Notes: a model not told the origin generated them from the sequence alone. A stretch of 64,000 bases of DNA from Alphaproteobacteria bacterium (GCA_027485835.1 JAIXQG010000002.1:138232-202231), one strand, 5' to 3'. Positions 3,432 through 8,646 are shown, counted from the stretch's first letter. Program-made: numbers and translations.

Positions 3432-3827
3432 ATGCAGGTTATTGTTATTCTTCTGATCGGTTGCCTTATATTCAACCTTTTTTGGGGTAGAATTCTGTTA
3501 GCCTTGATGGAATCGCTATCTGATTCTCCGATTCCATACTACCGCACCATCGCACTATCCTCAGTTATTTACATTGGTGCTGTCTTCTATATCCTCGGTA
3601 TCGAAGACTATCACTATTATTACAAGGAAAAAATAATGCCTGTTTTCTTTGTCTTAACGATCTTCGGGCTTTTAGTTTTCACATTCAGAAGACTGATCGC
3701 CCGCTATGCAAGATTAAGTAACGAACACGCTATCATAAACTCACGGTCGGCGATTTATGTCTCGGCAATATGGATCAGTCTTTCTATCTATGTTTTTTGG
3801 TATGAGAACTTGAAAGACTTCATATAA
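3432..3827 (+). CDS. hypothetical 4-TM membrane protein (131 aa), low-GC inserted gene
   Basis: Complete ORF with its own promoter, SD and a downstream bidirectional terminator. Composition is strongly AT-skewed relative to its neighbours. It sits between rpoA and rplQ, which are normally adjacent. Confidence 0.6.
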   Translation: MQVIVILLIGCLIFNLFWGRILLALMESLSDSPIPYYRTIALSSVIYIGAVFYILGIEDYHYYYKEKIMPVFFVLTIFGLLVFTFRRLIARYARLSNEHAIINSRSAIYVSAIWISLSIYVFWYENLKDFI

Positions 3828-3845
3828 AAAACCACGCACAAAAAA

Positions 3846-3870
3846 GGAGCTTTCGCAGCTCCTTTTTTAT
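3846..3870. terminator. bidirectional rho-independent terminator (aaaaaaggagc-tttcgc-agctcctttttt)
   Basis: Perfect hairpin flanked by an A-run on one side and a T-run on the other. It terminates both the + strand insert gene and the - strand rpoA. Confidence 0.65.
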
Positions 3871-3880
3871 TTAACTTTAC

Positions 3881-4897
3881 TTAGAAAGTCTTGTCGAGAC
3901 GACGTGCGAGGTCTTCGATGTTTTCCGGCGGCCAGCTTTCGAGACGCATACCGAGGCCCAGACCCATTTGACCGAGAACGTCTTTGATCTCGTTGAGGGA
4001 CTTACGGCCGAAGTTCGGGGTCTTCAGCATTTCACTTTCGGACTTCTGCACCAGGTCGCCAATGTAAACGATGTTTTCGTTCTTCAGGCAGTTGGCGGAA
4101 CGGACGGACAGTTCCAGCTCGTCCACCTTCATCAGCAGGTGCGGGTTGATGTCGATCACGTCATCGCGGCGGCCAGCGTCGTCGGCGATGTCTTCGAAGT
4201 TAATGAAGACGCCGAGTTGGTCTTGCAGAATGCGGGCGGAGAAGGCCAAAGCGTCTTCCGGAGCCACTACACCGTTGGATTCGATTTCCATGACCAGCTT
4301 GTCGTAGTCGGTGATCTGACCCACGCGGGCGTCGGAGACCTTGAAGCTGACGCGACGGATCGGGCTGTAGATGGCGTCGATCAGGATGGAACCCGGTTGG
4401 CGCTCTTCGCTCTTGCGGTCGGCAGCCGGAGAGTAACCCTTGCCGGTACCTACGGTCAGCTCGATGCGCAGTTCGCCCTTTTCAGCCAAAGTGGCGATCA
4501 GGTGGTTCGGATCGATGATTTCGATATCGTGGGTGGTTTCAATATCGGCAGCAGTGACCGGACCGGCACCCTTCTTGTGCAGGGTTACGGTTTTCGCCTC
4601 GGTGGCGTGGCTGCGGATAGCCATGGCCTTGAGGTTGAGAATGATTTCCGTCACGTCTTCCATCACGCCCGGCAGGGTGGTGAACTCGTGCACAGCGCCA
4701 TCGATCTTGATGGAGGTGATAGCGGAGCCTTGCAGGCTGGAGAGCAGTACACGGCGCAGAGCGTTACCGAGGGTGTGGCCGAAACCGCGCTCGAGCGGCT
4801 CGATGGTGAAGGTGGCAAATTTCTTCGGATCAGTACCAGCGCTCATACCTACCTTGGTGGGTTTGATGAGCTCTTTCCAGTTGGCTTGAATCTGCAT
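3881..4897 (-). CDS. rpoA: DNA-directed RNA polymerase subunit alpha
   Basis: 338 aa with '[16 protein letters not shown]...[43 protein letters not shown]', conserved RpoA NTD and CTD. Confidence 0.97.
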
Positions 4898-4995
4898 GGG
4901 GTATCGCCTTCCTTAGCCTTTTTATATGAATCTTTTGCACCGAAATCTACGTGGTTAGGGCCGTCGGTGCAAGCGGCCCTAACTACGGTCAACCT

Positions 4996-5406
4996 TTAAA
5001 CGCGGCGGCGCTTACGGGGTTGGCAACCGTTGTGCGGGATGGAGGTCACATCGCGGATGGTCACAATCTCAAAACCTTGAGCTTGCAGACCACGCAGTGC
5101 GCTTTCGCGGCCGGAGCCGGGACCACGCAGCAGCACGTCGAGAACGCGCACGCCGTGCTCCTTAGCGGAACGGGCGGCACCTTCAGCGGCCAGCTGAGCA
5201 GCAAACGGGGTGCCCTTGCGGGAGCCCTTGAAACCAGCCTGACCGGCAGAGGACCACGCAATGGCGTTACCCTGAGCATCGGTGATGGTCACGATGGTGT
5301 TGTTGAAGCTGCTGTAAATGTGAGCGGTTGCCGAAGAAATATTCTTACGGTCTTTACGCTTGGTGGGACGGGCGGACGAAGCGCCCTTCTTTTGCGGAGT
5401 AGCCAT
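4996..5406 (-). CDS. rpsK: 30S ribosomal protein S11
   Basis: 136 aa uS11 signature ([18 protein letters not shown]...[14 protein letters not shown]). Confidence 0.97.
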
Positions 5407-5431: not shown

Positions 5432-5803
5432 TTACTTCTTCTTACCCGCAACGCCAGCTTTACGCGGGCCCTTACGAGTACGTGCGTTGTGGCGGGTGCT
5501 TTGACCACGGACCGGCAGACCCTTACGGTGACGCAGACCACGGTAGCAACCAAGGTCCATCAGACGCTTGATGTTGAGGCTTACCTGACGACGCAGGTCA
5601 CCTTCTACGATAAAGCTGGCGTCGATCACGTTACGGATACGACTGACTTCATCGTCGCTCAGGGTGTTGACGCGACGGGTCGGTTCAACTTGAGCTGCTT
5701 CTAGAATTTTATATGTGTTTGCCGGACCAACGCCATAGATATAGGTGAGAGCCACCCATACTTGCTTGTCAGTCGGAATATTAACACCCGCGATACGTGC
5801 CAC
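5432..5803 (-). CDS. rpsM: 30S ribosomal protein S13
   Basis: 123 aa with '[26 protein letters not shown]', uS13. Confidence 0.97.
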
Positions 5804-5890
5804 GAGCTACACTCCTACTTTGAAATTAACTTGAAACTGATGCGACACTGTGCCGCACGCAGCCGACCAACTCAGGCAAGCCAACAAGGC

Positions 5891-6058
5891 TTATGCCTGG
5901 GTAACGCTGTAACGACCGGTCTTACCGTTCTTACGCTTGTCGCGCATGACGATACGAATACGGCCCAGGAACTTACCGGCCTTGTTACGGGTACGACGTA
6001 CCACTTGCAGTTTACGGTCGCGCACTTTTTCAGCGCGGATGGACGAGGCGTAACGCAT
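5891..6058 (-). CDS. 55-aa very basic protein in the rpmJ (bL36) syntenic position; possible divergent Cys-less bL36-like ribosomal protein
   Basis: Not in the ORF track (<60 aa). Translated manually: MRYASSIRAEKVRDRKLQVVRRTRNKAGKFLGRIRIVMRDKRKNGKTGRYSVTQA. An SD (aaggaag) precedes the ATG. Codon usage is CGT-rich like the neighbouring r-protein genes. It shows weak pattern similarity to bL36 (MKVRxSVK...RRGR...). Confidence 0.4.
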   Translation of the reverse strand: MRYASSIRAEKVRDRKLQVVRRTRNKAGKFLGRIRIVMRDKRKNGKTGRYSVTQA

Positions 6059-6244
6059 CTTCAATTACTTCCTTACACTAGAGGGTCAGAGGGGGCATTA
6101 ACAGGTAAAAAACATCTTGGCAAGTATAAAAATCATCTTACCCGTGTGGCTTTTTGCCCCTGCTGGTACCAGCTTCCTCAAACCTCTCGGTTTAACTCTT
6201 GAATTTGCGGTGAAACGGTTGATTCACCACACGACATTGCTGCC

Positions 6245-6505
6245 TTATTTTTTGGCGGGAGGAGTAGCCGGCGCGCCGAGCGACGGTTCCTTTTTACGAT
6301 ACGTAATACGACCCTTGGTGAGGTCATACGGAGTCATTTCCACGGTTACCTTGTCGCCTTCCAGAATACGGATGTTATTCTGGCGCATTTTACCGGAAAT
6401 GTGGCACAGCACAGTCGGGCCGTTTTCCAGTTTAACGCGGAACAAAGTATTGGGCAGCGACTCGGTCACTACACCTTCGAATTCGATTACATCATCTTTA
6501 GCCAT
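6245..6505 (-). CDS. infA: translation initiation factor IF-1 with a short Pro/Ala/Lys-rich C-terminal extension
   Basis: The '[29 protein letters not shown]...[32 protein letters not shown]' S1-like IF-1 core, plus a '[15 protein letters not shown]' tail. Confidence 0.9.
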
Positions 6506-6522
6506 GGCGCGGGTTTAACGCA

Positions 6523-6558
6523 GTTTTCCGCATAAAGCAAGGGGCCTTAGGGCCCCCT
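6523..6558 (-). terminator. hairpin (aagggggcc-ctaa-ggcccctt) between adk and infA; attenuator or weak terminator
   Basis: Strong GC hairpin, but the downstream T-run is poor. Confidence 0.3.
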
Positions 6559-6573
6559 TGTTGAAGCGAAGCT

Positions 6574-7221
6574 CTATTTAGCCCCGAGAAGTTGCAGAAT
6601 ATGCTGATAGACATCCTCGATATTGGCCATGCCATCGAGTGTCACCAAGCGCTGCTGGGCCAAGTAATAGCCCAATACCGGCGCAGTCTGCTGGTTGTAG
6701 ACATCCAGACGGTGACGCACCACGTCCGGCTTGTCGTCGTCGCGCTGGATCAGCTTCTCGCCGGATTCATCGCAAATCCCAGCCACTTTCGGGGGGTTGA
6801 AGTCCTTGTGATAGACCTTCTTGCTCTTCGGCGCGTACAAGCGTCCTGCACGGCGCTCAATCAGCGCCTCGTCGTCCACTTTCAGCTCAATTACCTTGTC
6901 TAACTTCAAATGATGGTTCTGTAGCCATACATCCAGCGCCTCAGCCTGCGCCACAGTACGTGGGTAGCCATCTAGAATCACGCCGTTCTGGCAGTCCGGA
7001 TCTTCCAAACGCTCGAACACCAGTCGGTTAACCAGCTCGTCGTTGACGAGATCGCCCGCTTCCATCACCGACTTCACTTCAACACCCACCGGCGTTTCGG
7101 CGGCAATCGCAGCGCGGAACATATCGCCGGTACTTAGCGCGGGAATACCGAACTTTTCCATCAACTTGGCAGACTGGGTCCCCTTGCCGGCGCCGGGGGG
7201 GCCGAACAGAACAATAATCAT
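6574..7221 (-). CDS. adk: adenylate kinase
   Basis: N-terminal P-loop 'GPPGAGKGTQ' followed by conserved Adk motifs. Confidence 0.95.
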   Translation of the reverse strand: MIIVLFGPPGAGKGTQSAKLMEKFGIPALSTGDMFRAAIAAETPVGVEVKSVMEAGDLVNDELVNRLVFERLEDPDCQNGVILDGYPRTVAQAEALDVWLQNHHLKLDKVIELKVDDEALIERRAGRLYAPKSKKVYHKDFNPPKVAGICDESGEKLIQRDDDKPDVVRHRLDVYNQQTAPVLGYYLAQQRLVTLDGMANIEDVYQHILQLLGAK

Positions 7222-7266: not shown

Positions 7267-8646
7267 CTAGGATTTCCTGACGGGCGTGCGGATAAGACCA
7301 CCTTTGCCGCCCTTCATGCTGGTTTTCTTCAGCAGGCTTTCGTATTTCTGGGCAATCAGGGCCGATTGGATGCGGGAGACCGTATCGATCGTCACGCTCA
7401 CCATAATCAGCAGCGAGGTACCACCGATATAGAACGGCAGCGTCGCGTCGCGGTGAAGGATATCCGGCACGGCACAGATAAACGCCAGATACAGTGCGCC
7501 AATGGCGGTCAGGCGGGTTGCCACGCCATCCAGATAGCTGGCGGTGCTGGCACCGGGGCGGATACCGGGGATGAAGGCGCCGGACTTTTTGAGGTTGTCG
7601 GCCGTTTCTTCCGAGTTAAATGCTACGGTGGCCACATAGAAGAACGCGAAGAAGATAATCATGGCCACAAACAACGCCAGATACAGCGGTTTACCAGGAG
7701 TGAGCCATGCACCAATGAACTGCGCCCATGCCGACTCCGGCGCGTACGAGGACATCGTGACAGGCACCATCAACAGCGCACTGGCAAAAATGGGCGGAAT
7801 CACACCGGCAAGGTTCAGCTTGAGCGGCAGGTGGTTATTGTCGCCTGCGGTTGCCCCAAACATACCCTGACGCTTGGGATATTGAATGGCGATACGGCGG
7901 GTGGCGGTTTCCATAAAGGTAATGAAGAAGATGGCCGCAACCGCACCGATGGCGATGACAAACACCAGCAATTCGGAAATGGAACCTGTGCGGGCGAGTT
8001 CGAAGATCTGGAACACTGAGGCGGGCATAGTGGCGACGATACCGGCGAAAATCAGCAGCGAAATGCCGTTACCGATACCGCGGACGTTGATTTGCTCGCC
8101 CAACCACATAAGGAACATGGTGCCGGTGGTGATGGTAAGTGCGGTTTGCAACTGGAAGGCCAGACCGGGGTTGGTGACGAGGTTCATCACTTCGCCATTC
8201 ACAATTGCTGTTTGGTATTGAATGCCGGAAGCCAGACCAAAACCTTGCACAAAAGCAAGCACTACGGTGAGGTATCTCGTGTACTGGTTGATCTTACGAC
8301 GACCAACTTCACCTTCCTTTTTCAGCTCACTCAGCGTGGCCGAGGTTGAGGTAAGAAGCTGGATGATAATGCTGGCAGTGATGTAAGGCATGATATTGAG
8401 CGCGAACACGGCCATGCGCGAAAACGCCCCGCCGGAGAACATGTTGAACAGACCGAACAGGCCGTTTTGCAGGTTCTGCTGATAGCTGGCCAGAACAGTG
8501 ACATCGACACCCGGCAGAGGGATGTGCGTACCGAGACGGTAAATGATGAATGCAAACAGCACAAACAGGATGCGGGTGTGCAAACCTTTGGCTTTGGTGA
8601 GAAGTTCGGCGACTTCCGATTGGGAACCGAGACCGAATTGAGCCAT
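7267..8646 (-). CDS. secY: preprotein translocase subunit SecY
   Basis: 459 aa multi-TM protein with SecY motifs (GIxPYIxASII, etc.). Confidence 0.97.
   Translation of the reverse strand: MAQFGLGSQSEVAELLTKAKGLHTRILFVLFAFIIYRLGTHIPLPGVDVTVLASYQQNLQNGLFGLFNMFSGGAFSRMAVFALNIMPYITASIIIQLLTSTSATLSELKKEGEVGRRKINQYTRYLTVVLAFVQGFGLASGIQYQTAIVNGEVMNLVTNPGLAFQLQTALTITTGTMFLMWLGEQINVRGIGNGISLLIFAGIVATMPASVFQIFELARTGSISELLVFVIAIGAVAAIFFITFMETATRRIAIQYPKRQGMFGATAGDNNHLPLKLNLAGVIPPIFASALLMVPVTMSSYAPESAWAQFIGAWLTPGKPLYLALFVAMIIFFAFFYVATVAFNSEETADNLKKSGAFIPGIRPGASTASYLDGVATRLTAIGALYLAFICAVPDILHRDATLPFYIGGTSLLIMVSVTIDTVSRIQSALIAQKYESLLKKTSMKGGKGGLIRTPVRKS

Follow-up and report, generated by a model that had tools for sequence, protein, structure and literature searches.

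Introduction

Bacterial ribosomal protein L36 (bL36), the product of rpmJ, folds into a three-stranded sheet in which strands 2 and 3 form a hairpin around a conserved glycine. Two forms of the protein are distinguished. Type A (C+) bL36, or RpmJ, which is described by the models PF00444 and TIGR01022, carries four zinc ligands (C-x2-C-x12-C-x4-H), while type B (C−) bL36, described by NF002021, is zinc independent and is exemplified by E. coli YkgO (L36p/RpmJ2) and the 41-amino-acid L36 of many Alphaproteobacteria. The type B protein is the sole copy in Alphaproteobacteria and a Zur-regulated spare in E. coli. In E. coli, the leader RNA of the alpha operon lies exactly between rpmJ and rpsM. 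Zinc-free L36 is able to function in ribosomes at the position of bL36. Ribosome entries in the Protein Data Bank (PDB) include a chain named "50S ribosomal protein L36 2" (6i7v) as well as 41-amino-acid bL36 chains. L36 is a late-assembly protein that organizes 23S rRNA, and its place in the ribosome can be taken by L36p (PMC9825181).

Here we examine an open reading frame (ORF) of 55 codons that lies between infA and rpsM in a 64-kb stretch of DNA, which we call the window. The original prediction was that this ORF encodes either a highly divergent bL36 without cysteines or a novel small basic protein. We compared the locus with the two known types of L36, with its orthologues, and with the genes that fill the same slot in related bacteria.

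Results

A 55-codon gene in the rpmJ position

The ORF is encoded on the minus strand, with its ATG at 6058–6056 and its TAA stop codon at 5893–5891, and its 55-amino-acid product is MRYASSIRAEKVRDRKLQVVRRTRNKAGKFLGRIRIVMRDKRKNGKTGRYSVTQA. The coordinates and the placement between infA and rpsM are as originally given (Table 1); the flanking spacers are 186 nt on the infA side and 87 nt on the rpsM side, and the order of genes in this part of the window is secY, adk, infA, the ORF, rpsM, rpsK, and rpoA. The ORF thus ends the spc cluster just before rpsM, the position in which rpmJ is found. In all fetched loci where rpsM is present, the ORF precedes it by 32–262 nt, and infA usually lies on the upstream side. 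The link to infA is less strict: in three loci infA is absent from the sequence covered, and in others 1.4–2.1 kb of unrelated genes intervene.

Table 1. Features of the window and of the corresponding slot in related loci
Feature	Position	Strand	Description and evidence
secY	7267–8646		
adk	6574–7221		
infA (IF-1)	6245–6505	−	PF01176, E = 5.8e-30
Shine-Dalgarno-like site	6068–6074	−	AAGGAAG (GGAAG core), 9 nt upstream of the ORF ATG; sequence
Enlarged Cys/His-free bL36 CDS, rpmJ-like	5891–6058	−	55 codons + TAA; ORF, conservation, codon-position pattern, similarity to type B L36 pointing to homology
Residues 1–23	5990–6058	−	Gap-free on type B L36 1–23 (M+x.SS[IL][RK]..K.R.R...VVRR); HMM alignments (24yw_6, 28ye_Z, type B HMM, NF002021 with P0020), hhalign, MAFFT
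Insertion 1, residues 24–31 (RNKAGKFL)	5966–5989	−	Gap agreed by hhalign, MAFFT, and hmmsearch
Insertion 2, residues 38–43 (MRDKRK)	5930–5947	−	Translation, alignments
Residues 44–55, NGKTGRYSVTQA	5894–5929	−	Aligned to type B NKTDPRFKAKQG; N44, R49, and Q54 invariant in both families; hhalign, MAFFT
Alpha_RBS-like alpha-operon leader (RF00140)	5771–5887	−	cmscan 30.2 bits, E = 3.9e-4, full model length; gathering score 38
rpsM (uS13)	5432–5803	−	PF00416, E = 1.4e-31
rpsK	4996–5406		
rpoA	3881–4897		
L023, L025, L027, L028	infA-X-rpsM slot		Canonical 37–38-aa Cys/His L36; PF00444
L026	Same slot		Cys-containing L36, starts MKY, ends KQTQG, plus 45-residue tail
L029	Same slot		49-aa Cys-less L36; PF00444 E = 1.5e-10, NF002021 E = 1e-15
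L030	Directly after infA		47-aa ORF MRIANSLRSLKKRDDNLQQVRRRGRIFLVRRNKLKNGTAGRYKSRQG, uncalled at source
L022 (marine TARA scaffold)	infA-X-rpsM slot		56-aa member of the 55-aa family
L021, L024	Typical alphaproteobacterial order secY-adk-rpsM		Neither infA nor L36 there

Signals expected of a translated gene are present. In addition to the Shine-Dalgarno-like site of the window, a purine-rich site (GGAAG, GGAG, or AGGGG) occurs at similar spacing before the ATG in most orthologous loci. An in-frame TTG at 6064, two codons before the ATG, would yield a 57-amino-acid product; the ATG start, in the context M[RK]Y, is found in all 21 homologue clusters (see below) and in all 19 fetched loci. The protein contains 12 Arg and 7 Lys (19 basic residues among 55), 3 acidic residues, and neither Cys nor His, as expected from the proposal that it lacks zinc-binding residues. 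Nine of its 12 Arg codons are CGT (75%) and the other three are CGC; the CGT share is 51% in the neighboring ribosomal-protein genes and 25% in the other long ORFs of the window. Both the Shine-Dalgarno sequence and the CGT-rich, ribosomal-protein-like codon usage that had been pointed out are therefore borne out, the latter on small numbers of codons.

The gene is conserved and under purifying selection

A search of 5.8 billion proteins returned 21 clusters that match the window protein at 67–95% identity, all of them unnamed or called "hypothetical protein." Twenty are exactly 55 amino acids long, and the remaining cluster was called with 11 extra N-terminal residues. When one genome per GTDB species was scanned, the gene was present in 18 species-level metagenome-assembled genomes (MAGs), most of which are labeled Alphaproteobacteria; the nearest species-level carrier is VAFM01000001.1, a 1.02-Mb scaffold. 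Cysteine is absent from all 22 members of the 55-amino-acid family that were aligned.

Among 20 orthologues, mean pairwise differences at codon positions 1, 2, and 3 are 0.18, 0.14, and 0.50, such that third-position substitutions are about threefold above those at the first and second positions. The length, the ATG, and the stop codon are kept in 19 of the 20, the exception being L017, where the stop comes one codon earlier. Since the periodicity of the substitutions follows the minus-strand frame, that frame is real, and positions 5891–6058 are a translated gene under purifying selection. Two ORFs on the plus strand, 5762–6202 and 5937–6053, were rejected because the periodicity tracks the minus-strand frame. 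Conservation in relatives, on which the original prediction had been made to depend, is thus evident from the clusters, the 18 species, and the codon-position bias. The ORF had been described as unannotated, which is not true everywhere: both NCBI and JGI label the gene "hypothetical protein."

Sensitive comparisons point to descent from L36

Curated models do not recognize the window protein: at E ≤ 10 it does not match PF00444, nor does it match TIGR01022, NF002021, or any other NCBIfam model. Its sole Pfam line, Adhesin_Dr, is below threshold (E = 0.046) and was treated as noise. One family member (P0020) matches NF002021 with E = 0.0012 and 18.7 bits (cut-off 70), over residues 1–23 only. 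A profile of the family, searched against 1.84 billion representative proteins, recovered only its own cluster at E ≤ 0.001, with no bridge to L36. Searched against 177,635 distinct PDB sequences, the same profile had as its top two matches 41-amino-acid bL36 chains (24yw_6 and 28ye_Z; E values of 0.027 and 0.13), in which residues 1–23 aligned with residues 1–23.

More sensitive tests detect a relationship along the whole protein. An HMM of type B L36, built from Cys-less L36 sequences retrieved in this analysis, gives a match to each of the 22 family members; p values for single sequences range from 4e-7 to 5e-2, and the alignments are colinear at both termini. In hhalign, the family aligns with type B L36 at P = 2.1e-5 and a probability of 77%, residues 1–55 on residues 1–41, with 37% identity over 41 columns. 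Shuffling the columns gave scores of 9.5 ± 2.1 (maximum 16.9) versus the observed 25.9 (z ~7.7), and because none of 400 shuffles reached the observed score, basic composition is ruled out as the cause of the match. MAFFT independently places both gaps of the alignment as hhalign does, and in the MAFFT alignment M1, S6, R13, N44, R49, and Q54 are invariant across the 55-amino-acid family and type B L36. Similarity to type A (Cys) L36 is marginal in hhalign (P = 0.022) and needs a 3-residue gap at the N terminus; as a calibration, type A and type B L36 match each other in this test with P = 6e-14.

The 55-amino-acid protein is therefore, to judge from these alignments, almost certainly an L36 homologue, and on sequence comparison its family is a descendant of L36 that lies nearest to type B, the form without Cys. 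The HMM search suggested as a check of a divergent L36 gave a divided answer, as PF00444, TIGR01022, and NF002021 fail to match the window protein while the more sensitive tests support L36 homology. Failure to score with a curated HMM is an operational matter and says nothing on common ancestry, for which the full-length colinear similarity argues.

How does the protein compare with the known types? Like type B bL36, it is small and very basic and has no zinc-binding set of Cys and His residues. The two share identical spacing over residues 1–23 (M+x.SS[LI][KR]..K.R.R...VRR), an N-terminal segment 3 residues longer than that of type A, a G-R-[IV]-x-[IV] strand, and a C terminus of the form N...R[FY]...QG. 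Unlike type B proteins, which have 41–46 residues and an uninterrupted hairpin (RRKGR[VI]Y[VI]I), it has 55 residues, with 8 inserted after residue 23 and 6 after residue 37, both insertions containing residues that are invariant in the family. It also has a Leu where many type B proteins keep a single Cys17, it falls below the threshold of every curated model, and its gene resides in the main spc/alpha ribosomal cluster rather than in a Zur-regulated ykgM-ykgO pair. With type A bL36 the protein shares the infA-rpmJ-rpsM slot, as seen in L023, L025, L027, and L028, together with an N-terminal MK-x-x-S and a C-terminal QG; it differs in that all four zinc ligands are missing and that, besides having both insertions, it is 3 residues longer where type A has its zinc knuckle. 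Because it departs from type B L36 in the curated thresholds, in length, and in the uninterrupted hairpin, we consider the 55-amino-acid form a variant rather than a typical type B member. In the literature searched, we found no earlier description of this variant.

Two constrained insertions

An internal insertion of ~12 amino acids had been proposed; relative to type B L36, there are instead two, one of 8 residues and the other of 6. Insertion 1 is absent from type A L36, from type B L36, and from a 47-amino-acid intermediate encoded by the related locus L030 (see below). Insertion 2 is absent from 41-amino-acid type B L36 and present in the L030 form. Residues 32–37 (GRIRIV), which separate the two, align with type B GR[VI]Y[VI]I. 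The residues that are invariant in the family (R24, N25, K26, G28, K41, N44, G45, K46, G48, and R49) are concentrated within the insertions and beside them, and the inserted segments are therefore under constraint rather than being loose linkers.

AlphaFold2 models have strands at residues 19–24 and 30–36/38 with an N-K-A-G-K turn between them, which would lengthen the hairpin. Confidence in these models is low, with a mean pLDDT of 55 for the family alignment and 59 for the family together with type B L36, and is highest at residues 21–30. A Foldseek search of these low-confidence models against the PDB returned only noise (E > 4). Since bL36 folds on rRNA, we regard the outcome of AlphaFold2 and Foldseek as uninformative rather than negative. 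Insertion 1 is predicted to lie at the tip of the β2–β3 hairpin, and the low-confidence model is simply compatible with the alignment in this respect.

L36 proteins in the same slot of related bacteria

Relatives were chosen by their uS13 homologues (68–75% identity), and their contigs were then examined for what lies between infA and rpsM (Table 1). The 47-amino-acid ORF of L030 matches NF002021 (type B L36) with E = 4.7e-10 and PF00444 with E = 5.3e-4, both over its full length. It also matches an HMM of the 55-amino-acid family end to end, with p = 6.9e-13 and a single 8-residue gap. As this intermediate is similar to both families, it completes by transitivity the case for homology between the 55-amino-acid family and L36. 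The L030 form resembles the family in its slot, its N terminus, its C-terminal NG.AGRY..QG, and the possession of insertion 2. It differs in lacking the 8-residue hairpin insertion and in being detected by NF002021 and, weakly, by PF00444. Taken together, the hhalign match (P = 2e-5), the shuffle control, the 47-amino-acid intermediate, and the canonical L36 in the slot of relatives favor the first of the two options in the original prediction, a highly divergent Cys-less bL36.

Two of these loci have further peculiarities. The 47-amino-acid L36 gene of L030 (2555–2698) was missed in the source annotation, leaving an apparent gap of 480 nt between infA and rpsM. In L026 (2578–2829), L36 has 83 amino acids in total, and its 45-residue C-terminal tail is of low complexity. 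Of the lineages that retain a Cys-containing L36, that of L026 is nearest to the carriers, and the core of its protein already starts with MKY and ends with TQG like the 55-amino-acid family.

The order in which the enlarged form may have arisen was examined on a neighbor-joining tree of concatenated RpsM, RpsK, and RpoA (616 columns), with 500 bootstraps before and 300 after L029 and L030 were added. Without these two loci, the carriers of the 55/56-amino-acid form are one clade in 91% of bootstraps, and group with L026 in 86%. With L029 and L030 included, carriers plus L030 are recovered in 68% of bootstraps and carriers alone in 32%. In this tree, L030 is sister to the carriers, followed by L026 and L029 as a pair, then L025 and the other type A lineages, with L021 and L024 outside. 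The slot holds Cys-containing proteins of 37–38 amino acids, a Cys-less protein of 49 (L029), a protein of 47 with insertion 2 only (L030), and the proteins of 55/56 with both insertions. With modest bootstrap support, the series is consistent with stepwise growth in the ancestral slot, in which cysteines would have been lost first, insertion 2 gained next, and insertion 1 last, a course that is parsimonious on the tree. The type B-like N terminus may have arisen either in place or through replacement with a type B paralogue.

The names under which NCBI holds the carrier MAGs (L003–L020) conflict and include Blastochloris viridis, Pseudomonas fluorescens, Pseudomonadaceae, Pseudomonadales, Alphaproteobacteria, and Proteobacteria. 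Because the carriers form one clade in the RpsM, RpsK, and RpoA tree, several of these organism labels must be wrong.

An RNA leader-like element downstream of the gene

The spacer between the ORF and rpsM is filled by an Alpha_RBS-like element that begins only after the stop codon of the ORF and extends into the start of rpsM; Alpha_RBS is the alpha-operon leader to which S4 binds. In the window, the match is below the gathering score (Table 1). Elements of this kind were found at the equivalent place in 9 of 10 related loci scanned, with scores above gathering in L023 (2933–3033) and L026 (2954–3033); the other matches are in L022 (2955–3033), L028, L027, L010, L019, L001, and L021. Most such regulatory RNAs of E. 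coli are described as having a narrow distribution, in Gammaproteobacteria (PMC3616713).

A consensus scan of positions 5700–6600 found no sigma-70 promoter. The single terminator-like match in the same interval lies inside the Alpha_RBS element and the start of rpsM and is at the level expected from shuffled sequence; it was rejected. The operon of the carrier MAGs is of the alphaproteobacterial type that lacks rpsD, with rpoA directly after rpsK.

Discussion

We propose that the ORF is the rpmJ gene of the lineage that carries it and encodes a derived, zinc-independent form of the large-subunit protein bL36. Its homology and its position make it very probable that the 55-amino-acid protein is the working, ribosome-bound bL36 of carrier cells. 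It is probably also the sole bL36 of these cells. Scans by tblastn and HMM detected no second L36 within either the 64-kb window or loci L001–L020. Going by what is established for bL36, the protein would need no zinc to fold, like E. coli YkgO/L36B, and would bind the usual bL36 pocket in 23S rRNA near the base of the stalk, joining late in assembly and stabilizing the tertiary structure of the rRNA. Extra contacts with rRNA that are specific to this lineage would be made by the longer hairpin, whose R-N-K-x-G tip is invariant, and by the additional basic loop of the C-terminal part.

Could the protein instead be an L36-derived paralogue that has become specialized or conditional, for example as an alternative component of the ribosome or as an RNA binder outside it, while a canonical rpmJ at another genomic site, probably of type B, supplies the ribosome as in typical Alphaproteobacteria? 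Because the operons of L021 and L024 have no L36, those genomes must encode it elsewhere, and off-operon L36 therefore exists in the wider group. Divergence beyond the reach of PF00444 could reflect relaxed or changed constraint, and pairs of C+ and C− L36 are well known (PMC9825181). However, purifying selection on the gene is strong and its codons are those of a ribosomal-protein gene; it has held the rpmJ position across a clade in which uS13 has diverged to ~65% identity; the nearest sampled relatives, L029 and L030, have a recognizable L36 in the slot that is presumably the working copy; and our scans found no other L36 in the window or L001–L020. We therefore regard a paralogue of this kind as unlikely, and a possible second copy is the main reservation about our proposal.

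The two remaining alternatives deny that the ORF is a form of L36 at all. An unrelated small basic protein, associated with the ribosome or not and akin to the second option of the original prediction, might have displaced rpmJ and resemble L36 through composition or chance, as could be argued from the lack of any Pfam or NCBIfam L36 match, of a fold match, and of hits beyond its own cluster among 1.84 billion proteins. Against this speak the column shuffles, the colinear alignment from first to last residue by three independent methods, and the 47-amino-acid L030 form, which is significantly similar to both families; we consider displacement very improbable. Least credible is that the ORF is a chance frame within the leader RNA of the alpha operon, a reading suggested by the Alpha_RBS-like element immediately downstream and by the fairly long spacers of 186 and 87 nt. 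The RNA match starts past the stop codon, the excess of third-position substitutions is about threefold, and 55 codons with their ATG and stop are kept in 19 of 20 orthologues.

If the ORF encodes bL36, as we favor, why is the protein enlarged? One tentative and rather doubtful idea is that the two insertions, the best-conserved parts of the protein, reflect a lineage-specific remodeling of the region of the 50S subunit that surrounds bL36, namely the helices of 23S rRNA close to the stalk base and the periphery of the peptidyl-transferase center. The hairpin would then stand in or compensate for an rRNA element that has changed or a neighbor that has been lost. Were this so, these uncultured bacteria would have a structurally distinct large subunit, and the series of proteins in the slot would record how a zinc ribbon was dismantled and regrown as a larger RNA-binding hairpin. 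New rRNA contacts are what the invariant hairpin tip predicts.

Since PF00444, TIGR01022, and NF002021 miss the 55-amino-acid form, a universal bacterial ribosomal protein is labeled "hypothetical protein" across a clade of MAGs. In surveys of ribosomal proteins and estimates of completeness from marker genes that use these three models, L36 would be falsely recorded as missing. The graded series in the slot is a concrete case of the loss of a zinc ribbon, which has recurred among ribosomal proteins, and here the smallest protein of the large subunit then grew by about one-third. The finding extends the known range of bL36 and leaves the current understanding of it standing.

Finally, we note several features of the surrounding genes. 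The junction between infA and the L36-like gene is a hot spot for insertion in relatives (L004, 330–2450; L015, 7950–9720; L014, 8606–10000), with the L36-like gene staying beside rpsM. The insert of L004 contains three small ORFs of 154–158 amino acids on the opposite strand, with hydrophobic, signal peptide-like N termini, and that of L015 contains a 379-amino-acid ORF with a similar signal-like N terminus as well as a 205-amino-acid ORF. Linkage of the L36-like gene to rpsM is broken on a single contig, JBAQUW010000024.1, to which both L002 and L018 belong: in L002, an extra 107-amino-acid ORF (3589–3912) lies between infA and the L36-like gene, and a reverse-strand DUF6776-like gene (4314–5087) then replaces rpsM. 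InfA of the window is 86 amino acids long and has a C-terminal tail of ~14 residues rich in Pro, Ala, and Lys. The tails of InfA in L004 and L015 are similar, and InfA of L001, L002, L022, L023, and L025–L030 has 71–73 amino acids and is tail-less.
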